Shown: positions 3,067 to 42,564 of the stretch, piece by piece
Position numbering within the stretch: the stretch's first letter is position 1
Layout of the letters: every line of letters begins with the position of its first letter
Assembly (NCBI GenBank): GCA_903822435.1
Contig: CAIJPE010000074.1
Span: forward strand, 2,510-66,509
Source: an uncultured beta proteobacterium
GTDB lineage: Bacteria > Pseudomonadota > Gammaproteobacteria > Burkholderiales > Burkholderiaceae_C
Length of the DNA: 64,000 bases
Direction of reading: 5' to 3'
The notes under the pieces: generated by a model
Database searches by the model: none
Told to the model about the DNA's origin: nothing
The model's input: only the letters and a program-made list of their open reading frames with translations
Program-made: the position numbers and the translations under genes

Positions 3067-3100
3067 GCAACCATGATGGACGAATCCGGCACACACGGCG

Positions 3101-3718
3101 ATGACTTCCGCAACCGACACCCCCCGGGACAGCATTGGCGACCCCGCCAACGGGGCGGACCTCGCCTGCCTGGGCCGGGTCGCGGGGGGCGACCGATCCG
3201 CCTTCGAGCAGTTGTACCGCCGCTACCACCCCCGGCTGTCGCGGTTCCTGCGGCGCTTCACGGCGCGCAGCGACCTGGCCGACGAGGTCATCAACGACAC
3301 GATGTGGATCGTCTGGCGCAAGTCGGCCGAGTTCCGCGGCGAATCCAAGGTCAGCACCTGGATCACCGGCATTGCCTACCGTTGCATGCTCAAGGCGCTG
3401 CGCGGCACGGCACCGGCGGAAGAGCTGGGCGAGTCGCTGCTCGACGCCCCGCAACTCGAGCAATGGGCCGGCGCCCAGCACGATGCGGCGCCCGACCGCG
3501 AACTGCGCAACTGGGTAGCCTGCGGCCTGCGCACGCTGCCCGAGGACCAGCGCGTGACGCTGGAGCTGGCGTACCTGCTGGGGTATTCCTGCGAGGAGAT
3601 CGCCAGCGTGATGGACTGTGCGGTGGGCACCGTGAAGGCGCGGATGTTCCACGCCCGCGTGCGCCTGCGCAGCGTGATGCCGGCGCTGGGCGAAAGCCAG
3701 CGGTCGGCCGAAGGATGA
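3101..3718 (+). CDS. ECF-type RNA polymerase sigma-70 factor
   Basis: 205 aa. Region 2 (FEQLYRRYHPRLSRFLRRF, DEVINDTMWIVWRK) and region 4 HTH (LPEDQRVTLELAYLLGYSCEEIASVMDCAVGTVKARMFHAR) are present. Confidence 0.92.
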   Translation: MTSATDTPRDSIGDPANGADLACLGRVAGGDRSAFEQLYRRYHPRLSRFLRRFTARSDLADEVINDTMWIVWRKSAEFRGESKVSTWITGIAYRCMLKALRGTAPAEELGESLLDAPQLEQWAGAQHDAAPDRELRNWVACGLRTLPEDQRVTLELAYLLGYSCEEIASVMDCAVGTVKARMFHARVRLRSVMPALGESQRSAEG

Positions 3719-30593: not shown

Positions 30594-31445
30594 CTACATT
30601 CCCGTTGAAGTCGAAAGGCTCGGAAGGGTCAGAAGTGCCGCTACGGACCGGGCACGACGCCGCACCGCCTGGCCGATACCCCCAAGACCCGCCAGCATCA
30701 GCACCCACGGACTCGGCTCGGCCACCGGCAGCGCATTGGCCACTCCGCTGCTCACCGCAATCGAGTAGTCGCCGACATGGGCGAATTGCGGGTCGACAAA
30801 GATGTACGGGTCGATCCAGGCCGAAGCGACTGCCGCTGCGTTGGAACTGGCACCAACGATCAAGTGCAGGTAGACCCGCTCTGACGAACCGGAAGGCAGG
30901 GTGAGATTGAGATCGCCGTCGAAGCTGCTGGGGCAATCCGCAGGACCGGGCGACATGCTGCACGCGTGAGCCACCGGCCCACTGCTGATGATGCTGCCTG
31001 TGGGCGAGAGGCCGTAAAGCCTGAGGGCTGCCTCTGCGGCGTTTGCGTTGTTGCTGTCCAATGATGGAGAAACTTGGGTGGACATGCCGGTATGGACCAG
31101 GACCGGCACAAGGTCGCCGAGGCTTCCTCCCGTCACCGTGAAGTCGTACTGCAAGTCCACGGTCACTGAGGTGGCCCATCGATTGGCTGCGGGAATCTGG
31201 CTGGCATCGGCACGGGCCGACAGCAGGACCCAGGGTTGAATGCCGATGGAACCCTGGGCCGCCAACCCCAGACTGCACGACGCCGGGCCGACCGGGAACA
31301 CGCCACCGTCGGTGGTGGTGGTGGATACCTCGTACACCTGGCAGAAGGCTTCGCCGCCACCACCGGGCACCTGGGCGTGGGCGGATGGATCCAGCCCTGT
31401 CACCGCCAGCACGAAAAGGACAATCCAATGAAGAGGCCTGACCAT
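30594..31445 (-). CDS. Secreted protein with a variant PEP-CTERM-type anchor
   Basis: Signal peptide is MVRPLHWIVLFVLAVTGLDPSAHA. The C-terminal VAEPSPWVLMLAGLGGIGQAVRRRAR has AEP in place of PEP, then a TM helix and an Arg cluster. An extra 16-aa tail follows. Confidence 0.7.
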   Translation of the reverse strand: MVRPLHWIVLFVLAVTGLDPSAHAQVPGGGGEAFCQVYEVSTTTTDGGVFPVGPASCSLGLAAQGSIGIQPWVLLSARADASQIPAANRWATSVTVDLQYDFTVTGGSLGDLVPVLVHTGMSTQVSPSLDSNNANAAEAALRLYGLSPTGSIISSGPVAHACSMSPGPADCPSSFDGDLNLTLPSGSSERVYLHLIVGASSNAAAVASAWIDPYIFVDPQFAHVGDYSIAVSSGVANALPVAEPSPWVLMLAGLGGIGQAVRRRARSVAALLTLPSLSTSTGM

Positions 31446-34102: not shown

Positions 34103-34540
34103 TCAGCCGCCGCGGCGCAGGCGCAGCCGCAGGGTGTTCCAGCCCTCTTCGTGGGCGTAGTCCAGGCTCTGGCTCAACTGGCCCACCAGCACCAGGCCCA
34201 GGCGGCCGACCGGCCGCTGCAGCACATCGCCGGATTCGGTGTCGTCCGGGTGCAACGGGGCCAGCGCCTTCGGACGCGGATCGAAGGCAGGTGCGCGGTC
34301 GGCGTAGCGCAGCACCAGGTGCTGCGGCTCGGCGTGCCAGCCCATGCATACCGGCTCGTCGCAGTCGCCGCCATGGCCGTGCTGCACGGTGTTGGTGAAC
34401 AGTTCTTCCACCACCAGGCTCAGGCGCAGCACGTCCTCCGTTGCCACGCCCTGGGCTTCGCATTCGCGGGCCAGCATCGCCAGGGCTTCGGACAGGTTCG
34501 CCATGCGCGCAGCAAAGCGGTGCGGCAGGTCCTGGCTCAT
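34103..34540 (-). CDS. RsbW/SpoIIAB-type anti-sigma-like serine kinase (HATPase_c_2)
   Basis: 145 aa. The N-box is LVVEELFTNTVQHG and the G-box-like segment is GRLGLVLVGQLSQSL. It lies divergent from the FecR/OmpA pair. Confidence 0.75.
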   Translation of the reverse strand: MSQDLPHRFAARMANLSEALAMLARECEAQGVATEDVLRLSLVVEELFTNTVQHGHGGDCDEPVCMGWHAEPQHLVLRYADRAPAFDPRPKALAPLHPDDTESGDVLQRPVGRLGLVLVGQLSQSLDYAHEEGWNTLRLRLRRGG

Positions 34541-34618
34541 GGGCGGGGGCCCGGCGCAGGACGAACGTTTAAGCTCCGCCCCGAACGCGCCAACCCGGGC
34601 GCGGCTGGAGCGACCCGC

Positions 34619-35104
34619 ATGTGGCCACACCCTCTCGCACGGCAGCATGCCTTCAGGTGGCTCTGGCGCCGGCGCGCGGCTGCCATGGCCCTGGCCATCG
34701 CAGCCCTGGGCAGCACGGCCGCGCTGGCCGACATCGGCCAGATCAAGACGGTCAAGGGGCAGGTCACGATCGAGCGCAAGGGCGCCTCCCTGCCTGGCCA
34801 GATCGGCCTGCTGCTGGAGCCGATGGACGTCGTGAAGACCGGCGCCGACGGCTCGGTGGGCATCACCATGCGCGACAACTCGCTGCTCTCGGCCGGGCCC
34901 AACAGCATCCTCAGCCTGGATCGCTTCGACTTCGACGCCACCGGCAGCCAGCCCGGGCGCTTCGAAACCGTGCTGCAGCGGGGTACGTTGATGGTGGTGT
35001 CGGGCCGCATCGCCAAGCAGGGGCCGCAGTCGATGACAGTGCGCACCCCCACAGCCGTGCTGGGCGTGCGCGGCACCGAGTTCGCCGTGGAGGTGGCCGA
35101 ATGA
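34619..35104 (+). CDS. FecR-domain periplasmic protein
   Basis: GGAG RBS. Signal peptide is AMALAIAALGSTAALA. The FecR beta-sandwich pattern is IKTVKGQVTIERKG...VVKTGADGSVGITMRDNSLLSAGPNS...TPTAVLGVRGTEFAV. Confidence 0.85.
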   Translation: MWPHPLARQHAFRWLWRRRAAAMALAIAALGSTAALADIGQIKTVKGQVTIERKGASLPGQIGLLLEPMDVVKTGADGSVGITMRDNSLLSAGPNSILSLDRFDFDATGSQPGRFETVLQRGTLMVVSGRIAKQGPQSMTVRTPTAVLGVRGTEFAVEVAE

Positions 35105-35706
35105 GCGGCCGGCGGGCTGCGGTGCGGCGCGTGGCGCTGGCTCTGGTGGCGGCCGAGCTGGCCGCCTGCGCCGCACCGCAGGGCCAGGTGGTGCTGCTGC
35201 CCGAGCGTGACGGGAAGGCCACTTCGGTGGTGGTGACGCAGCCGGGTGGCGAGCTGGTGCTGAGCCAGCCCTACGCTGCGGCCAGCCTCACCCGCAACGG
35301 CCCGCAGCCTGCGACGCGCACGCCGGCCGAGGTGCAGGCGCGCTTCGGCGCTGCCATGGCGGCGCTGCCGCTGCCGCCGACGCGCTTCACGCTGTACTTC
35401 GTGGAGGGCAAGGACGAGTTCACCGATGAGTCGCGGCGCCAGATCGACGCAGTGTTTGCCGAAATCGCCCGTCGGCCGCTGCCCGACGTGGTGGTCATCG
35501 GCCACACCGACCGGGTGGGCAGCGACGAGTACAACGACACGCTGTCCCGCCAGCGGGCGGAAGTGGCCCGCCAGGCGCTGGTGCTGCGCGGCCTGGCGCC
35601 CGAACAGGTGGTGGCCGTGGGGCGCGGAAAGCGCGAACTGGCCGTGCCCACCGCCGATGGCGTGGCCGAGGCACGCAACCGCCGGGTTGAGATCCAGGTT
35701 CGCTGA
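35101..35706 (+). CDS. OmpA-family peptidoglycan-binding lipoprotein
   Basis: The ATG overlaps the FecR stop (ATGA). Lipobox is LAACA. The OmpA_C motif is VVIGHTDRVGSDEYNDTLSRQRAEVARQALVLRG...NRRVEIQV. Confidence 0.88.
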   Translation: MSGRRAAVRRVALALVAAELAACAAPQGQVVLLPERDGKATSVVVTQPGGELVLSQPYAAASLTRNGPQPATRTPAEVQARFGAAMAALPLPPTRFTLYFVEGKDEFTDESRRQIDAVFAEIARRPLPDVVVIGHTDRVGSDEYNDTLSRQRAEVARQALVLRGLAPEQVVAVGRGKRELAVPTADGVAEARNRRVEIQVR

Positions 35707-35730
35707 ACGGGGTGTGGTCACGCTGGGGCC

Positions 35731-37860
35731 TCAAGGGTCGGGTGCGGCAGCCGCCGCGCCCTGCCAGCGCACGGCCAGGATGGTCAGGTCGTCGGCCGGT
35801 TCGGCCCCGGCGGCGAAGGCCATGACGCTGCCATGCAGGGCCTGCACCAGGTCCGAGGCGCCGCACTGCCGCTGGCTGGCCTGGCCGATGACCTGCGCGG
35901 CGCGCTCGAGACCGTAGCGCTGGCCCTCGGCGTCCTGCGCGTCGATCACGCCGTCGGTCAGCAGGCACAGCAACTCGCCCGGCTGCATCTGCCGCTGCGC
36001 GCCCTTGTAGGCATAGCCGCCCAGGGTGCACAAGGGCGGGCCGTCGCCGTCCTCGATGCGGCCGAGCCCCGGCGACGGCGGCTTCAGCACGAAAGGGTTG
36101 TCATGCCCGGCGTTGCAGTAGTGCAGGATGCCGCTGCGCAAGTCCAGCACCGCGGCGAACAGGCTGACGAAGAGCATTTCGGGATTGTCCCGCGAGATCT
36201 CGACGTTGGCCGTCACGAGCAACTGACCCAGGTCAACGTGCGGCGCCCTCAGCATGGCGCTCTTGACCAGCGCCTTGCTCACGGCCATGAAGATCGAGGC
36301 TGACAGGCCCTTGCCCGCCACGTCGCCGATCATCAGGAACAGGCGGTCGGCGTCCAGCAGGAAGTAGTCGTACAGGTCGCCGCCCACTTCGCGGGCGGGC
36401 GTCATGGCGGCCTTGAGCTGCACGCGGGGCTCGCCCTGCAGCAGGTCGCCGCGCGGCAGGCTGCCCGTCTGGATGCGCTGGGCGGCCTGCAGTTCGCCGC
36501 CCATGCGGGCGCTGTCTTCGCGCTGGGCCTGCATCTGCGTCTGCAAGAGCTGGCGGTGGTGGATGGACTCGGCCAGCGACAGCGACAGCAGGCCGCCCCC
36601 GAGCAAGACCAGGTAGAGCCCCGGCGTGGCGGTGTCGATCAGGAGATGGCCGTAGCGGAAGGCCAGCAGCCCGGCGCCCACGGGCAGCAGCACGCCCGCG
36701 GCCAGGCCCAGCACGCCCAGGACGGGCGTGGTGCGCGGCGCACCCCAGACCATCAATCCCCCCAGCACCAGCAGCAGCAGCGTTTCGGCGGCCGGTGCCC
36801 AGGGCGGGCGGCGCAACAGCGTGCCATCCAGCAGGTTCTCCAGCAACTGGGCGTGGATCTCGGTGGCCGAGAGGCGCTCGCCGGCCGGCGTGTCGTGCCC
36901 GTCCTGCAACCCGAGCGCCGTCGGTCCCACCAGCACCATCTGCCCGCGGAACTGCGCCGGGTCGAAGCGGCCTTCCAGCACGTCGATGGCCGAGACAAAG
37001 CGGTCGGCCCGGTGCGCCGAGAAGTACGGGCGAACGTCCCCGTCGGATTCGGCGGGGACGACCAGGCGCCCCACCTGCAGGCCCGTCATCTGGCGTCCCC
37101 AGGCGGAGATCTGCACGACGCCCGCGCCCAGCGCCACGCGCACCATCTCCAGGGCCAGGCCGGGTACCAGCGTGCCGTGGATACTGGCTACCAGGGGCAT
37201 GCGGCGTACCACGCCGCGCGTGGTCTGCACCGAGATCAGGCCGCGCCCGGCGGCCTGGCGGTCCAGCACGTCGATGCTGCGCAGCACGCCCGGGTATTCG
37301 GCCACGGCCAGCGGCAGGGGGGCTGCCTGCGGACCCCGGGTGTCGCGCACGGTCATCGGCGTGGCGCGCAGCGGGATGGACGTCGTGTCCGGGCTGCCGG
37401 CCATCACCAGCACCACGGGCGCCGTCACCATCGCAGCCGCCAGCACCTCGTCGTTGGATCGCTGGCCCCGCAGGGCAGCCGCCACCTCCGGGTCGTGGCC
37501 GGCGGCCTGCGCCAGCAGCCGCTCGGGCGACAGGGCGTCGGCCTCGGGCATGAGGATGTTCAAGCCGATGGCGGCCGGGCGCGCGGTCTGCAGCGTGCGC
37601 ACCAGGCGGGCCAGCTCGGTGCGGGGCCATGGCCACTGGCCCAGGGCGAGCAGGCTCTTCTGGTCGATCTCGACCACCGTGACGGGCAGGTCCACCAACT
37701 GGCGGGGCAGCAGCAACTGATGGGCATCGAACCAGGCCGCTTGCAGCCGCTCGGTCCAGGGTGCCTGCATCAGCAGGAGCAGCAAGAGCAGGATTGCAGT
37801 GCCGCCGGCACGTATGCGTGCCGCCGGACCGGGCAGCCACCGCGCAAGCAGCGCCTTCAC
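35731..37860 (-). CDS. CHASE2 sensor-domain membrane protein fused to a PP2C/SpoIIE-type serine phosphatase (RsbU-like)
   Basis: 709 aa. The N-terminal TM helix and periplasmic CHASE2 pattern read VVEIDQKSLLALGQWPWPR...AAIGLNILMPEAD. A TM cluster follows. The PP2C motifs are EVGGDLYDY, MIGDVAGKGLSASIFM, YCNAGHDNP and LLTDGVIDAQD. Confidence 0.85.
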   Translation of the reverse strand: MKALLARWLPGPAARIRAGGTAILLLLLLLMQAPWTERLQAAWFDAHQLLLPRQLVDLPVTVVEIDQKSLLALGQWPWPRTELARLVRTLQTARPAAIGLNILMPEADALSPERLLAQAAGHDPEVAAALRGQRSNDEVLAAAMVTAPVVLVMAGSPDTTSIPLRATPMTVRDTRGPQAAPLPLAVAEYPGVLRSIDVLDRQAAGRGLISVQTTRGVVRRMPLVASIHGTLVPGLALEMVRVALGAGVVQISAWGRQMTGLQVGRLVVPAESDGDVRPYFSAHRADRFVSAIDVLEGRFDPAQFRGQMVLVGPTALGLQDGHDTPAGERLSATEIHAQLLENLLDGTLLRRPPWAPAAETLLLLVLGGLMVWGAPRTTPVLGVLGLAAGVLLPVGAGLLAFRYGHLLIDTATPGLYLVLLGGGLLSLSLAESIHHRQLLQTQMQAQREDSARMGGELQAAQRIQTGSLPRGDLLQGEPRVQLKAAMTPAREVGGDLYDYFLLDADRLFLMIGDVAGKGLSASIFMAVSKALVKSAMLRAPHVDLGQLLVTANVEISRDNPEMLFVSLFAAVLDLRSGILHYCNAGHDNPFVLKPPSPGLGRIEDGDGPPLCTLGGYAYKGAQRQMQPGELLCLLTDGVIDAQDAEGQRYGLERAAQVIGQASQRQCGASDLVQALHGSVMAFAAGAEPADDLTILAVRWQGAAAAAPDP

Positions 37861-38828
37861 GGGCCGCTGTCCAGCCCGATCTCCAGCCCGTCGTAGGCCG
37901 CGCTGATGCGCAGCGCCTGGTCGCCGCGGGTGATTTCTTCCAGGCGTCGTGTTTCCTCGAGCACGGCTTCAATGGCGGCGTCGTCGAAAACCGGCTCGTG
38001 GTGGAACAGGCACAGGTGCTTGACGGCGGCCATCTGGCACAGCTCGACACCCACCACGTTGCTCGAGTGGCCCCAGTCGGCCTTGATCGAGATGGCATCG
38101 GCCAGTGAGTACATGCCATCGAAGACCACGAGGTCGGCGCCCTGGAAGAAGCGCACGAATCGCTCGGTGTGCTCGGGCTGCTCCAGCGGGTGTTCGGAAT
38201 CGGTGGAATAGACCACCGATCGCCCCGCGCCCTCGAATCGGTAGCCGTACGAATCGCCCCCATGGCGCTGCAGCATCGAGCGCACGCCGAGGCCTGCCAC
38301 CGTGTAGCGCTCTTCGGGCTGCAGGGTGACGAATTCGATCTGCGCATTGAAGATCGAGAAGTCCACCGGAAACGAGGGCTGGTCCTGCTGGCGGCGCAGC
38401 GCCGCCTCCAGGCCCGGGTGGCTGCCGTAGAACACCACGCGATTGCCTGGAATCAGGGCCGGCACGAAGAACGGCAGGCCCATGATGTGGTCCCAGTGCA
38501 GATGGGACACGAAGATATGGAAGGTCTGCGGGGGGCCGCCCCGCCGCTGCGCCAGCGCCGCCAGGCCGAAGGGCCGCAGGCCGCTGCCCATGTCGCAGAC
38601 CACGAATTCGGGGCCACCGGTATCGATCTGCACACAAGAGCTGTGGCCGCCATAAGTGCCCGAGATCTCGAAAGGCAGGCTCTGGAGGTGGGCGTCGATG
38701 TCGGCCTCGGTGGCCAGGGCGCGGCCCGCGGTGGCCTGCAGCGCGGCGCGGATCTTGGCGCGCACGCCAGTGGCCGTCAGCGCGACCGGCAGCGAGCCGC
38801 GCGTGCCCCAGAAGCGCACCGCCTTCAT
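37857..38828 (-). CDS. MBL-fold metallo-hydrolase embedded in the partner-switching operon
   Basis: 323 aa: MKAVRFWGTRGSLPV...HIFVSHLHWDHIMGLPFF (HxHxDH)...HSSN. Both junctions with neighbouring genes are 4-nt ATGA overlaps. Confidence 0.85.
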   Translation of the reverse strand: MKAVRFWGTRGSLPVALTATGVRAKIRAALQATAGRALATEADIDAHLQSLPFEISGTYGGHSSCVQIDTGGPEFVVCDMGSGLRPFGLAALAQRRGGPPQTFHIFVSHLHWDHIMGLPFFVPALIPGNRVVFYGSHPGLEAALRRQQDQPSFPVDFSIFNAQIEFVTLQPEERYTVAGLGVRSMLQRHGGDSYGYRFEGAGRSVVYSTDSEHPLEQPEHTERFVRFFQGADLVVFDGMYSLADAISIKADWGHSSNVVGVELCQMAAVKHLCLFHHEPVFDDAAIEAVLEETRRLEEITRGDQALRISAAYDGLEIGLDSGP

Positions 38829-39268
38829 GGACCGGGCCGTCGGGACTGGTACGAGGCCTGTGCCGCGGCCGAACAGCGCCCCAGCGCGTCGTCCACGGTA
38901 GGGCTGACGGCCAGCACGCGGTCGAAGCGGCTGATCTTGATGATCTCGCCCACCACATCCTGCAGCGCAGCCAACGCCAGCGTGGCCTGCGCTTCGCGCA
39001 TCTGCTTGGCGGCGATCATCAGCACGCGCAGGCCGACGCTGCTGATGTAGTCGACCCCCGAGAAGTCCAGCACCAGCGCGCCCTGGCGGGCGCCGGTCTG
39101 CTGCAGCAGCGGGGTGAGCGCGGCTTCGAAGGCGGCGGCACTGAGGTGATCGATGCGGCCTGCGGCGGCTGCCACGGTGGCGTCGGCAAACTGGCGCGTG
39201 GCGAGCAGCAAAGGACCTCCGTGGCGTTGACGCAGTACCCCGTCGGCGGATCGGCGCCGGGCGTGCAA
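38825..39268 (-). CDS. STAS-domain anti-sigma-factor antagonist (RsbV/SpoIIAA-like)
   Basis: LVLDFSGVDYISSVGLRVLMIAAKQM retains the phosphorylatable Ser context. The longest ORF starts at the TTG at 39268. An alternative TTG at 39211 is preceded by GGAGG. Confidence 0.8.
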   Translation of the reverse strand: MHARRRSADGVLRQRHGGPLLLATRQFADATVAAAAGRIDHLSAAAFEAALTPLLQQTGARQGALVLDFSGVDYISSVGLRVLMIAAKQMREAQATLALAALQDVVGEIIKISRFDRVLAVSPTVDDALGRCSAAAQASYQSRRPGP

Positions 39269-39312
39269 TTCAGTATAGGGCGATCGGGCGCCGCAGCAAT
39301 CCCGAGGAACGG

Positions 39313-39527: not shown

Positions 39528-41087
39528 TCAACGCAAGGCCAGCGAGTCGCGCCGCCAAGCCGGGTCCTGCCAGCGGTTGAAGGCCCCGAGCACGCCCGGC
39601 TCGAAGGCCGTGCGCTCGGCGGTCAGGGTGTCGAGCTGCATCACCTCGAAGCGGCGGAGGGCGCGCGCAGGCTGGGCGGACCCGGCGGAGCCCCACGCTT
39701 CACGGGCCACCAGCACCTGCTGGCCGCCAGGCACCCAACCGGCGAACTCGGCGTAGCCCAGCCCCGGGGCCGTGGCTTGCGGCGGCAGCACCTGCACGCC
39801 CCAGCCGTCCGGGCCCCGGCGGAAGATCCACAGCTCGCGCCAGCCGTCGGCCGGCTGCACGGCCAGTGCCAGGGCCGTGCCTTCGCGGTTGGCACTGGCG
39901 CTGGCGGGCCAGGGCAGGCCCCAGGTGCATCGCTCGATCGCCGGGGCCGAGGCGGCCGAGCGGCGGTCGGACACCGCCACGCAGGTCTGTCCGTCCTCGG
40001 TGGTGCGCGTGCTCAGGGCCAGCCCGCCCGTGGCAACCACCGGACCCGCCGCAGTGGCCCAGCGAACGGCGCCCACCCGCAAGGCCGCTTCGTCATACCG
40101 CGCGGTATCCCCATCGGCAAGCTCCCCGCGGGCCACACTGGCCAGGGCCTGCAAGGCGCGCGCGGCACGGGCCGCGGCGCCGGCGGAGTCACCGCGGCGC
40201 GCCTGGGCATAGGCCAGGCTGGCCAGCACGCCGGCGCGGCGCATGGCCAGGCGGTTTTTCCAGAGTGGGGGAAGGTCGGCATCGGGCACACGGTCCAGCA
40301 GGTCGGCACGGGCCGCGTCGGCCTGCTCCCGGGCGGACGGCGTGGCCGCAGGGTCCTGGCAATCGGGCCGGGTCAGGGCCAGGACGGCATGCGCACGCTG
40401 TTCGGCACTGGCGGCCTGGAGCGCCAGCAGGCGGCGCCAGGCATCGCCCTGGTAGCACAACAGGGTCCTGCCGCCCAGGTCCAGGCTGGTGAAGGCCACG
40501 CCGTGCCGGGCGGCCACGTCCAGGTGCGCGCTGAGCGCGGCCTGGTCGGCCGTGCGCAGCGGCGCCGGGCCCGAGGCGCGGTCGGCCAGGCGCTCGGCCT
40601 GCTGGCCGATGGCGTCGAGCAGTTCGGCGCCGTCCGGCCCGGCCAGGCGTTGTGCTGGCGCGGCCTGGATCGCCGCGGCGGCCAGGCCCAGGCCCAGGGA
40701 CTCGGCACCGGGCTGCTCGCGCACATAGCCCAGCACGGCCATCAGTTCACCGGCCACCGCCGCGTCGGTACCGGCGGCGCGGACGGGGAGCACCTGGCTG
40801 CGGCGCACCCAGCCCCCGCGCTCGCGCTGGTGGTCCCACACCTGCAGGTATTCGCCACGCAGGCTGCGGATCTCCAGCGCGTCGCCGCGGTACAGCAAGC
40901 TCAGCTGGGGTGCGGCTTCGCTGGCGCTGCCGCGCAGGGCCGTCTGGTCCTGGGTGACCAGGCCGGCAGGCGCTGGAGCCGTGGCGGCCCGCGCGCTCAC
41001 CATGAAGCACGCGGCGGCCAGTGCCAGGGCCATGGTGGCCGCCACGGTCCAGCGGCGGGTGGTCAGGCGGAGGCAGCCCATGCTCAT
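39528..41087 (-). CDS. Secreted hypothetical protein with an N-terminal bacterial SH3-like domain
   Basis: Signal peptide is WTVAATMALALAAACFMVSARA. The SH3b-like segment is LRGSASEAAPQLSLLYRGDALEIRSLRGEYLQVWDHQRERGGWVRRSQV. The start overlaps the SPFH gene stop (ATGA). Confidence 0.65.
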   Translation of the reverse strand: MSMGCLRLTTRRWTVAATMALALAAACFMVSARAATAPAPAGLVTQDQTALRGSASEAAPQLSLLYRGDALEIRSLRGEYLQVWDHQRERGGWVRRSQVLPVRAAGTDAAVAGELMAVLGYVREQPGAESLGLGLAAAAIQAAPAQRLAGPDGAELLDAIGQQAERLADRASGPAPLRTADQAALSAHLDVAARHGVAFTSLDLGGRTLLCYQGDAWRRLLALQAASAEQRAHAVLALTRPDCQDPAATPSAREQADAARADLLDRVPDADLPPLWKNRLAMRRAGVLASLAYAQARRGDSAGAAARAARALQALASVARGELADGDTARYDEAALRVGAVRWATAAGPVVATGGLALSTRTTEDGQTCVAVSDRRSAASAPAIERCTWGLPWPASASANREGTALALAVQPADGWRELWIFRRGPDGWGVQVLPPQATAPGLGYAEFAGWVPGGQQVLVAREAWGSAGSAQPARALRRFEVMQLDTLTAERTAFEPGVLGAFNRWQDPAWRRDSLALR

Positions 41088-42394
41088 TGCTCCTTGCGGC
41101 CTTCGCCGGACTCGCCGGTGCCGCCGTCACGGGCGGGCTCGGCCACAGCCTCCTTCATGCCGCCCACCAGGGCGCTGGCGATGAATCCACCCGATTCCGG
41201 CGGCGGCGCGATGATGACCTGGATCTTGTCGCTCAACCGGTCGGCCAGGGTCTTCTGGATCAGCAGCGGGTGGCGCGTGATGAGCGCCCCCTCCACCGCC
41301 ATCTGCTCCGCATTGACCTTGCCCAGGCGTGCCAGCCGGTAGGCCTCGGCATCGGCGAGCTTCTCGCGCGCCTCGGCCTCGCCCTGGGCTTCGATGCGGC
41401 GGGCCTGCGCCGCGCCTTCGGCCTGCTTCACGCGGGCCTGGCGTTCGGCCTCGGCCTCGAGTTGGCGCTGCTCCACCTGCTTCTGCTTGAAGGGCAATAC
41501 GTGCTTCATGGCTTCTTCCTGCGCCTTGGCGGCGATGATCTGCTCGCGGCCCGCGGCCTCGGCGGCGGTCTCGCGGCGCACCTTGTCGGCGGCTGCGTCC
41601 AGCTCGGTTTCCTTCACCCGCTTGTCCTTGAGCTCCAGCGTGTAGCGCATCTTTTCGGTGGCCAGCCCTTCGGCCAGCAGACTGTCCAGGCCGCGCCGGT
41701 AGTCCGCCGGCAGGTCCACGTTGCCGATCTGCACCGTGCGCAGGAGCAGGCCCTCGGCCGCGAGCTTGGCGCGCAGCTCGGTTTCGATCTGGCGGGCGAT
41801 CTCGGCGCGCTGGGTGGAGAAGATCTCACGCACCGTGTGGGTGGCCAGGATGCGGTAGACCACGCCCTGCACTGCCGGCTCGATGATGTCGGCAGCCGGG
41901 TCATCGGGCAGCCCCAGGCTTGCGCCCTGAGCGAGCCTGTCGCTGTCGATGGCCCAGCGCACGCTCAGCTCCAGGCCGATGGACAGGCCCTCGACGCTCT
42001 GCGCCGGGGCCGGCCCACTGGCCTTGGCCATCGATTCGGCATGCCAGGTCTGGTCGCGCAAGGGGTAGCTGCGGATCTCGTGCACGCCGGGCAGCACCAG
42101 CAGGCTGCCGTCGTGAAAGCGGCTGACCTGCCCGCTGAAGAGGTTGGTGCGCAACACCACCTCGCCGCGCGGCACGCTGTGCACGGGTGGGTGCCGGGCC
42201 AGCGCCCACAGGCCGGCGCCCGCCGCAACCACCAGGCCAGCGGCAAGGAGCGGCTTCTTCAGCTGCGCGATGCCAGGGGTGGTCCGCAAGCCAGCGTCGG
42301 CGGCCGGCAACGGGCCTGCGCCGCGCCGCCGCGTCCACAGCGTGCGCAGGCCTTGGCGGATGGAATGGACCAGGGGTGTGAGGATCGGCTTCAT
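41084..42394 (-). CDS. SPFH/Band-7 (prohibitin/flotillin-like) domain membrane protein with a long coiled-coil tail
   Basis: From the internal Met MKPILTP there is a TM helix (LLAAGLVVAAGAGLWAL). The SPFH core is EVVLRTNLFSGQVSRFHDGSLLVLPGVHEI...GLSIGLELSVRW...IFSTQRAEIARQIE. An E/A/R/K-rich coiled coil follows. Confidence 0.85.
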   Translation of the reverse strand: MKPILTPLVHSIRQGLRTLWTRRRGAGPLPAADAGLRTTPGIAQLKKPLLAAGLVVAAGAGLWALARHPPVHSVPRGEVVLRTNLFSGQVSRFHDGSLLVLPGVHEIRSYPLRDQTWHAESMAKASGPAPAQSVEGLSIGLELSVRWAIDSDRLAQGASLGLPDDPAADIIEPAVQGVVYRILATHTVREIFSTQRAEIARQIETELRAKLAAEGLLLRTVQIGNVDLPADYRRGLDSLLAEGLATEKMRYTLELKDKRVKETELDAAADKVRRETAAEAAGREQIIAAKAQEEAMKHVLPFKQKQVEQRQLEAEAERQARVKQAEGAAQARRIEAQGEAEAREKLADAEAYRLARLGKVNAEQMAVEGALITRHPLLIQKTLADRLSDKIQVIIAPPPESGGFIASALVGGMKEAVAEPARDGGTGESGEGRKEQ

Positions 42395-42564
42395 GGGGCA
42401 CCTTCGTTGCGGGGTTGCGGCCGAGCCGCCATCGGGCCCTGCCATGGATGCCGATGATTCGCAGCCGTCCCGGAAGGCACAACGCAGCCGGCGGGGCAAT
42501 GCACCCCCGGCCGCGGAAGAAACGCTCACACCGCGCGGGCCGGGCGGCTTCGATAATCCGCCGC

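Follow-up and report, generated by a model that had tools for sequence, protein, structure and literature searches.

A conserved six-gene cassette of uncultured Burkholderiales that combines partner-switching components, a CHASE2 envelope sensor and a metallo-hydrolase

Introduction

In Bacillus, partner-switching genes occur in the order rsbV-rsbW-sigB-rsbX, and the sigB operon typically shows autoregulation by its sigma factor. In Gram-negative bacteria, partner-switching modules that lack a sigma factor are common, and their outputs are mostly uncharacterised. CHASE2 is a widespread sensor domain, with ill-defined ligands and an ill-defined mode of activation. The locus described here brings the two together. 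It is a six-gene cassette of an uncultured beta proteobacterium (assembly GCA_903822435.1, contig CAIJPE010000074.1), situated between positions 34103 and 39277 of a 64-kb stretch of DNA, the whole of which is referred to below as the window and supplies all window coordinates given. The cassette encodes a CHASE2 sensor fused to a PP2C-type Ser phosphatase, a single-domain STAS protein, an RsbW-type GHKL protein (hereafter the kinase), a metallo-beta-lactamase (MBL)-fold hydrolase, a FecR-domain protein and an OmpA-type lipoprotein.

Several described systems resemble parts of this arrangement. Enzyme outputs of partner switches have precedent in SiaC-SiaD (PMC8457831) and HsbA-HsbD (PMC5085249). 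In Pseudomonas aeruginosa, YfiB sequesters YfiR, and YfiN is thereby released (PMC4655355, PMC4887326). A FecR-domain gene lies next to a CHASE2 histidine kinase gene in the BiofilmReg operon of Burkholderia (PMC5192318), and the CHASE2 cyclases of S. meliloti depend on NsrA, an outer-membrane protein, for perception of a plant protein signal (PMC13001267). A literature search found no paper linking CHASE2 with PP2C or STAS, and none linking an MBL enzyme with partner switching.

The region is read here as a self-contained relay from envelope to cytoplasm, in which CHASE2-PP2C would relay the signal to Ser58 of STAS, with the MBL phosphodiesterase as the final step; the prospects of this reading appear evenly balanced. 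A further proposal, that the MBL phosphodiesterase has replaced a sigma factor as the protein controlled, and would be the first metallo-hydrolase to act as a direct output of a partner switch, perhaps with a nucleotide messenger or an RNA as substrate and with OmpA lipoprotein, FecR protein and CHASE2 as a three-part envelope sensor driving it, seems less likely than not.

Results

Conservation of the cassette

The six-gene cluster is a conserved unit, beyond what chance would produce. A pattern scan using one genome per species gave 80 loci (L003–L082), and the presence counts given here cover only loci with sufficient flanking sequence. The STAS gene adjoins the CHASE2-PP2C gene in 63 of 64 loci, the MBL gene in 67 of 68, the OmpA gene in 68 of 70 and the FecR gene in 64 of 66, while the kinase gene accompanies it in 42 of 63 (adjacent in 41). 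Median identity to the window proteins is greatest for the MBL protein (70%), followed by FecR (66%), OmpA (62%), STAS (58%), the CHASE2-PP2C protein used as the query (55%) and the kinase (45%), the lowest of the cassette. Gene order recurs in about 80 species-level genomes at protein identities of 43–81% and with unrelated flanks, and the same cassette is present on independent metagenome contigs. All-against-all clustering of the flanking open reading frames (ORFs) revealed no further neighbour common to more than 15 of 82 loci. Look-ups seeded with kinase homologs (down to 37% identity) or with MBL homologs led to the cassette every time. The original prediction, made from the window alone, had proposed neighbourhood statistics as a check on its grouping of these genes, and across the 80 loci the statistics bear that grouping out.

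The window phosphatase is closest to proteins of Rubrivivax- and Caldimonas-like Burkholderiales metagenome-assembled genomes (MAGs). The 80 loci are likewise mostly from Burkholderiales (Rubrivivax, Caldimonas, Ideonella, Rhizobacter and Casimicrobiaceae), with a few labelled Methylomirabilota or Rokubacteria. The carriers amount to about 80 species, uncultured and from soil and water. All but one of the 80 genome matches are MAGs, the exception (L080) being 'Burkholderiales bacterium isolate BURK1', and none of them places the full cassette in a named cultured strain, which hampers experiments. One locus (L041) is labelled Bordetella parapertussis, apparently through an error in binning or labelling.

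A scan of 1.84 billion cluster representatives with the CHASE2-PP2C query returned 4084 proteins at E ≤ 1e-30. About 100 of the best 150 matches span nearly the whole query, at identities down to 34%. This broad match set indicates that CHASE2-PP2C proteins form a large, uncharacterised family.

Gene layout and domain content

The features of the cassette are listed in Table 1; the G+C content of the window is about 70%. Domains were called with the curated gathering cut-offs of Pfam, and every domain named in the original prediction scores above its own: HATPase_c_2 in the kinase (E 1.2e-18, 67.8 bits, cut-off 27.4), FecR (E 1.5e-10, 41.8 bits, cut-off 24), OmpA (E 3.4e-18, 66.3 bits, cut-off 27.2), CHASE2 (E 6.9e-48, 163.9 bits, cut-off 26.3, residues 24–368), SpoIIE in the PP2C part (E 7.8e-39, 134 bits, cut-off 25), Lactamase_B_2 in the MBL protein (E 8e-19, 68.5 bits, cut-off 27) and STAS (E 2.4e-16, 59.9 bits, cut-off 22.6). 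The motifs quoted in that prediction are all present in the translations. The partner-switching-type set that it had recognised, in which an RsbW-type GHKL protein and a SpoIIE/RsbU-type PP2C accompany a STAS protein with a conserved Ser, is thus domain-confirmed, and CHASE2 and PP2C do reside on a single protein.

The gene junctions also agree with the earlier description. The stop of the FecR gene and the start of the OmpA gene overlap by 4 nt (ATGA, 35101–35104), and this pair converges on the phosphatase gene, with 24 nt separating the stop codons of the OmpA and phosphatase genes. On the opposite strand, the MBL gene lies within the STAS-phosphatase operon, with 4 nt overlaps on both sides (ATGA at 38825–38828 with STAS, GTGA at 37857–37860 with PP2C).

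Table 1. Features of the six-gene cassette in window coordinates.
Feature	Position	Strand	Domain or basis
RsbW/SpoIIAB-type GHKL protein, putative Ser kinase/switch protein, 145 aa	34103-34540	-	Pfam HATPase_c_2
Divergent intergenic region, 78 bp, with -10-like box TAAGCT (34570-34575) facing the FecR gene	34541-34618
FecR-domain protein, small, periplasmic, 161 aa, signal peptide ending ...TAALA/D	34619-35104	+	Pfam FecR
OmpA-type peptidoglycan-binding lipoprotein, 201 aa, lipobox LAAC with Cys23	35101-35706	+	Pfam OmpA
CHASE2 sensor fused to PP2C (SpoIIE/RsbU-type) Ser phosphatase, 709 aa	35731-37860	-	Pfam CHASE2 + SpoIIE
MBL-fold metallo-hydrolase, RNase Z/ElaC/PhnP phosphodiesterase branch, 323 aa	37857-38828	-	Pfam Lactamase_B_2
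Single-domain STAS protein, 128 aa from TTG at 39211, putative phospho-acceptor Ser58	38825-39211	-	Pfam STAS
-10-like box TATACT upstream of the STAS-MBL-PP2C operon	39272-39277	-	Ortholog comparison

The STAS protein

The original prediction started the STAS gene at a TTG at 39268, which is probably wrong, as the TTG at 39211 has a GGAGG ribosome-binding site. The latter start gives a protein of 128 aa and leaves the TATACT box upstream of the gene; full-length STAS genes called in the orthologous loci encode 120–134 aa. The protein scores 70.8 bits against the NCBIfam model ant_ant_sig (cut-off 53.45). Its motif DYISSVGLRVLM is nearly unchanged in 66 orthologs, and the second Ser is present in all of them, kinase-less loci included. 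Numbering from 39211 places the conserved Ser of DYISSVGL at residue 58. In alignment, the second Ser of the motif falls on the Ser in DSAGL of TM1442, the position equivalent to Ser58 of SpoIIAA. The protein has what is expected of an antagonist of this type, a single STAS domain with a conserved, potentially phosphorylatable Ser.

The CHASE2-PP2C phosphatase

Hydrophobic segments of the phosphatase occupy residues 12–34, 355–375, 377–402 and 415–433. The CHASE2 domain sits between membrane segments, so that it would face the periplasm, as expected of such a domain. Its motif GQWPWPR is kept in near relatives and the core W-P-W-x-R in distant ones. In the PP2C domain, the metal-binding Asp positions (D495, D513, D636 and D690/D691) are invariant.

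The AlphaFold2 model (predicted local distance difference test score, pLDDT, 72; predicted template modelling score, pTM, 0.45) shows one helix, residues 411–466, that bridges the last membrane segment and the PP2C domain. A helical linker of this kind is considered the route of activation in RsbU-type phosphatases (PMC12143880). The best structural matches of the PP2C part in Foldseek are SpoIIE, RssB of P. aeruginosa, the RsbU domain of Rv1364c, SiaA and RsbX, with the SiaA PP2C domain (6k4e) matching at a template modelling (TM) score of 0.81. Together with the Pfam score and the invariant Asp residues, these matches place the domain in the SpoIIE/RsbU class. Part of CHASE2 (residues 153–232) is modelled at very low confidence (pLDDT 28–43). 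The 50 best PDB matches listed are all PP2C/PPM phosphatases and include no match to the CHASE2 region, which appears to be without a solved structural relative.

The MBL-fold hydrolase as candidate output

The MBL protein is the sole non-signalling enzyme of the cassette, and the original prediction had treated its gene as a passenger. This view does not fit the present data, since no other gene of the six is as conserved or as tightly coupled. Its 4 nt overlaps with STAS and PP2C also occur in two other loci (L001 and L090). The metal ligands H109-x-H111-x-D113-H114, H189, D210, H254 and H276/H277 are invariant in 29 sequences and, with the Lactamase_B_2 score, establish membership of the MBL-fold superfamily.

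A search of the PDB by sequence gave only a marginal RNase Z match, and a fold search was therefore needed. With the AlphaFold2 model (pLDDT 77, pTM 0.82), the top PDB matches in Foldseek are the ElaC homolog 1zkp, YhfI, RNase Z, PhnP, yeast PDE1 and Apyc1, the nearest folds reaching TM 0.5–0.58 when normalised to the query. These matches form the phosphodiesterase branch, to which the protein is assigned. It is not an RNase Z/ElaC equivalog: the RNase Z models score 54.6–56 bits against NCBIfam cut-offs of 252–293, alignment with RNase Z is limited to the MBL core and the GHSS and HxHxDH motifs, and no NCBIfam equivalog cut-off is reached. The substrate is presumably a phosphodiester such as a nucleotide or RNA.

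More distant CHASE2-PP2C loci (L092, L109, L120, L124 and L153) carry STAS and kinase genes without the MBL gene, indicating that the latter is a clade-specific addition. In one metagenome contig (L093:5075-10208) the order is STAS-kinase-MBL-CHASE2/PP2C, with the OmpA and FecR genes convergent downstream, so that MBL takes the operon slot held by sigB in Bacillus. Because the MBL gene is the best conserved, is translationally coupled to STAS and holds the sigma slot in this contig, the phosphodiesterase is the most likely candidate for the output of the switch. Distant MBL homologs (32–35% identity) stand alone in Leptospira and on Rhizobium plasmids, where the neighbours are a PilZ gene or, a few kb away, adenylate cyclase genes.

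Sigma factors and promoters

If the cassette were a conventional anti-sigma switch, the GHKL protein would hold a sigma factor encoded elsewhere until displaced by dephosphorylated STAS, and MBL would be an accessory or an unrelated, co-transcribed enzyme. Sigma factors were searched for with phmmer, using RpoE and SigB seeds, and then by hidden Markov model (HMM), with flanks of 7–10 kb at each locus. As the original prediction had it, the only sigma factor in the window is of the extracytoplasmic function (ECF) type (3077–3718), well away from the cassette. ECF genes occur in 3 of 82 genome loci, at differing positions (-8, +9 and +6.5 kb), and a sigma factor in 1 of 80 further metagenome loci. 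No adjacent sigma factor was detected in these roughly 160 related loci, using a probe that had no positive control for SigB-type sigma factors here. A consistently adjacent sigma factor, which would have told against the prediction of a sigma-less locus, is thus not what orthologous clusters carry, and a sigma factor as conserved neighbour was rejected on these counts. The lack of one is, however, less unusual than had been supposed: ordinary PP2C-kinase-STAS clusters without CHASE2 in the same scan are equally devoid of sigma factors, which makes this the norm for the class. A diguanylate cyclase as linked output was also rejected; GGDEF genes adjoin the cassette in L090 and L091, but a probe of 82 loci detected them in only 3.

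Two promoter-like boxes were recognised by comparing the upstream regions of orthologs. Upstream of STAS is the motif CTCCTATACTGAA, or TATAAT/TACAAT in other clades, about 30–85 nt before the start in most loci. Upstream of FecR is GGT(T/A)AAGCT (GGTTAAGCT in the window), or TAGAAT/TAAACT/TAGAGT in other clades, and this box is kept at the same place in most kinase-carrying loci. Both are AT-rich in DNA of 70% G+C and resemble sigma-70 -10 elements, without a clear -35. A consensus promoter scan found no promoter and missed both boxes; the accompanying terminator scan gave a single terminator-like site, located within the MBL gene and not above chance expectation. Since both boxes are sigma-70-like, unlike an alternative-sigma promoter, they give no hint of sigma autoregulation.

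The absence of any sign of autoregulation and of an adjacent sigma factor in these loci, along with an MBL gene that is more conserved and more tightly coupled than the kinase, makes the conventional anti-sigma switch a doubtful explanation. It is nevertheless the strongest of the alternatives, given that the GHKL protein has a HATPase_c_2 match and weak matches to the models for RsbW and RsbA, that the STAS protein is above the cut-off of the anti-sigma antagonist superfamily, and that the sigma search spanned 7–10 kb flanks, while Gram-negative switch genes are often unlinked from their targets, as in Chlamydia (PMC8256260) and HsbA-RpoS (PMC6482189).

The GHKL protein

The original prediction described the kinase gene as unlinked from its partners. 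It is in fact divergent from the FecR gene, with 78 bp between the starts, and holds this position in 41 of 63 orthologous loci. The protein can be aligned with B. subtilis RsbW (6m36) over the N-box, G1 and G2 regions. Its N-box (VEELFTNTVxHGH) and G2 box (GGLGL) are kept in 40 orthologs, from which kinase competence is plausible. G1 reads D-x-A-P-x-F in the window, whereas RsbW, more distant relatives and the kinase within the L093 operon have the D-x-G form. Activity as a kinase is uncertain because of this replacement of the glycine by Ala or Ser. On a tree of the MBL proteins, the kinase is present in the deepest branches and gone from several separate sub-clades, a distribution which indicates that it is ancestral to the cassette and has been repeatedly lost or relocated.

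A degenerate GHKL protein that binds without phosphorylating, with STAS acted on by another kinase or through binding alone and PP2C having a different substrate, would account for the D-x-[A/S]-P form of G1 in the window clade, for the low conservation of the protein, for its absence from the locus in 21 of 63 cases and for its loss in separate sub-clades. It would leave unexplained why the Glu and Asn of the N-box, the Asp of G1 and the GGLGL of G2 are all retained, why the phospho-acceptor Ser of STAS is invariant in 66 orthologs even where the kinase is missing, and why this kinase subfamily, down to the most distant homologs found (37% identity), occurs only within the cassette. Such degeneracy seems improbable. 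The weakest alternative, that unrelated genes for signalling and for the envelope have come together here by chance, has in its favour that each domain is common in Proteobacteria, and is refuted, to a near certainty, by the synteny data: the genes have the same order and orientation in about 80 genomes at species level and on many metagenome contigs, flanks are unrelated and genes overlap by 4 nt.

The envelope pair

The flanking of a phosphatase carrying a periplasmic CHASE2 sensor by a FecR-domain protein and an OmpA-type lipoprotein was predicted originally and is supported by the domain searches. The pairing of FecR with CHASE2 is a general one and already in print (PMC5192318). FecR-domain genes lie directly upstream of CHASE2 receptors with various outputs, such as the CHASE2 adenylate cyclases of Shinella and Paracoccus, and also precede more distant CHASE2-PP2C genes (L109, L120 and L144). 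On plasmid pBN1 of Paraburkholderia aromaticivorans (L085, 537127–539725), a small FecR gene (150 aa) is followed by an OmpA gene (204 aa), as in the window, and accompanied by a CHASE2-only gene (492 aa) whose product has no recognisable output domain. Because CHASE2 receptors with other outputs are likewise accompanied by FecR, in some cases together with OmpA, these proteins belong to the sensor and not to the switch. The OmpA lipoprotein contains the peptidoglycan-binding motif NDTLSRQRA. From these associations, the OmpA lipoprotein, the FecR protein and CHASE2 are read as a three-part envelope sensor, for which the pBN1 triad, being in a cultured organism, could serve as a tractable model.

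The FecR protein is not a transmembrane anti-sigma factor of the FecI-FecR-FecA type. It consists of a signal peptide and a FecR domain (70–158) only, has no adjacent ECF sigma factor, and shares with those systems the FecR domain alone.

In six kinase-less loci (including L025:13225-13947 and L077:13223-13804), an ORF for a Ysc84 (SYLF) protein (Pfam 2.1e-08) lies upstream of FecR on the same strand. This may be an alternative accessory protein.

Flanking genes

Just upstream of the cassette (39528–41087 and 41084–42529, both on the minus strand), the gene for a 519-aa secreted-looking protein with no Pfam match overlaps that of an SPFH/Band 7 protein by 4 nt; the pair is not kept beside the cassette in other loci. 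On the other side, at 30594–31445 (minus strand), is a gene for a 283-aa protein with no Pfam match and a PEP-CTERM-like tail, PSPWVLMLAGLGGIGQAVRRRAR. In L001 and L002, a gene with a weak PEP-CTERM/exosortase sorting-domain match lies about 6.5 kb from the phosphatase gene and about 5 kb past the kinase gene. An anti-phage defence system was considered and rejected, the kinase, PP2C, MBL and STAS proteins being without a PADLOC match.

Discussion

In the relay proposed above, the outer-membrane OmpA-type lipoprotein and the periplasmic FecR protein would be accessory sensors for CHASE2, and may work by sequestration in the manner of YfiB, YfiR and YfiN. The signal would then travel, going by the structural model, along the continuous helix from the last membrane segment to the SpoIIE/RsbU-type PP2C domain. 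This domain would strip the phosphate from Ser58 of STAS, a chemistry predicted from domains and residues that are themselves observed, and the RsbW-type GHKL protein would phosphorylate STAS or simply bind it. The output would be the MBL-fold phosphodiesterase made from the same mRNA, and not a sigma factor encoded nearby. Two modes of control can be envisaged: unphosphorylated STAS may bind and regulate MBL, as SiaC does SiaD, or the GHKL protein may hold MBL until STAS displaces it, as RsbW does with sigma-B.

Several points weigh against this scheme. An unlinked sigma factor or other target could be encoded beyond the 7–10 kb flanks. The G1 glycine of the kinase is replaced by Ala in the window and by Ala or Ser clade-wide, although the G1 Asp is kept, and in about one third of the loci the kinase gene is not within 10 kb. 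The genes annotated up to 7 kb to either side of the MBL homologs of Leptospira and Rhizobium include neither STAS nor PP2C. The argument for MBL as the output is one of association, the YfiBNR-like sequestration step is pure analogy, and the AlphaFold2 models are of moderate confidence (pLDDT 72–77; pTM 0.45 for the phosphatase).

Phosphorylation, sensing and control of MBL are steps that we infer, and no component is categorically new. Every one is a known domain, the organisms are uncultured, and current understanding is not overturned. What the cassette offers is the hypothesis that an operon-embedded enzyme is the output of a partner switch. A second hypothesis is that a FecR-domain protein with an OmpA lipoprotein is a general periplasmic partner of CHASE2, whatever the output domain, which would extend to CHASE2 histidine kinases and adenylate cyclases. 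A three-part sensor, if true, would explain how CHASE2 receives its signal.

Among known systems, the cassette shares with RsbU-RsbV-RsbW and SpoIIE-SpoIIAA-SpoIIAB of Bacillus a single-domain STAS protein whose phosphorylatable Ser occupies the equivalent position, a small GHKL protein of kinase or anti-sigma type, and a SpoIIE/RsbU-type PP2C whose nearest structures include SpoIIE and RsbX. The variant order in L093 (STAS-kinase-X-PP2C) also recalls the Bacillus rsb genes. It differs in having no sigma factor in or near the cassette, with MBL in the sigma position, in a phosphatase that is an integral membrane protein with a periplasmic CHASE2 domain, and in a kinase G1 without glycine. RsbU-RsbV1/V2-RsbW of Chlamydia trachomatis is similar in that a transmembrane PP2C with a periplasmic sensor feeds a STAS/kinase switch (PMC8256260, PMC4552016) and no dedicated alternative sigma factor is linked (PMC8256260, citing Soules et al. 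2020). In contrast, the sensor of the cassette is CHASE2 with FecR and OmpA, an MBL gene is embedded, and there is one STAS protein and not two.

In SiaABCD of P. aeruginosa, the phosphorylation state of SiaC is set by the membrane-anchored PP2C SiaA together with the kinase SiaB, and SiaC in its unphosphorylated form binds and activates SiaD, an enzyme of the same operon (PMC8457831, PMC7647112). The cassette phosphatase is not a SiaA ortholog, since it scores 24 bits against an NCBIfam SiaA cut-off of 700, and membership was rejected on this ground and because the cassette has no GGDEF gene, such genes being near only 3 of 82 loci. SiaC is not known to belong to the STAS family of Pfam. SiaABCD has a diguanylate cyclase as its output, where the candidate here is an MBL phosphodiesterase, and its input is not CHASE2.

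YfiBNR of P. aeruginosa is the nearest mechanistic parallel to the proposed sensor and has the same general layout: its outer-membrane lipoprotein is OmpA/Pal-like, its periplasmic component is a small protein, and its signalling enzyme sits in the inner membrane with a sensor in the periplasm. The cassette departs from it in having a FecR-domain protein in place of YfiR and CHASE2-PP2C in place of a diguanylate cyclase as receptor, and its OmpA protein scores 57.8 bits against the YfiB model (cut-off 128). Membership was rejected on these features, and the likeness is therefore one of analogy only. The CHASE2-FecR loci of Burkholderia and rhizobia have histidine kinases or adenylate cyclases as outputs, encode larger FecR proteins with LysM or other domains, and are without STAS, kinase and MBL genes. 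What they have in common with the cassette is the CHASE2 periplasmic sensor and, immediately upstream of it, a FecR-domain gene.

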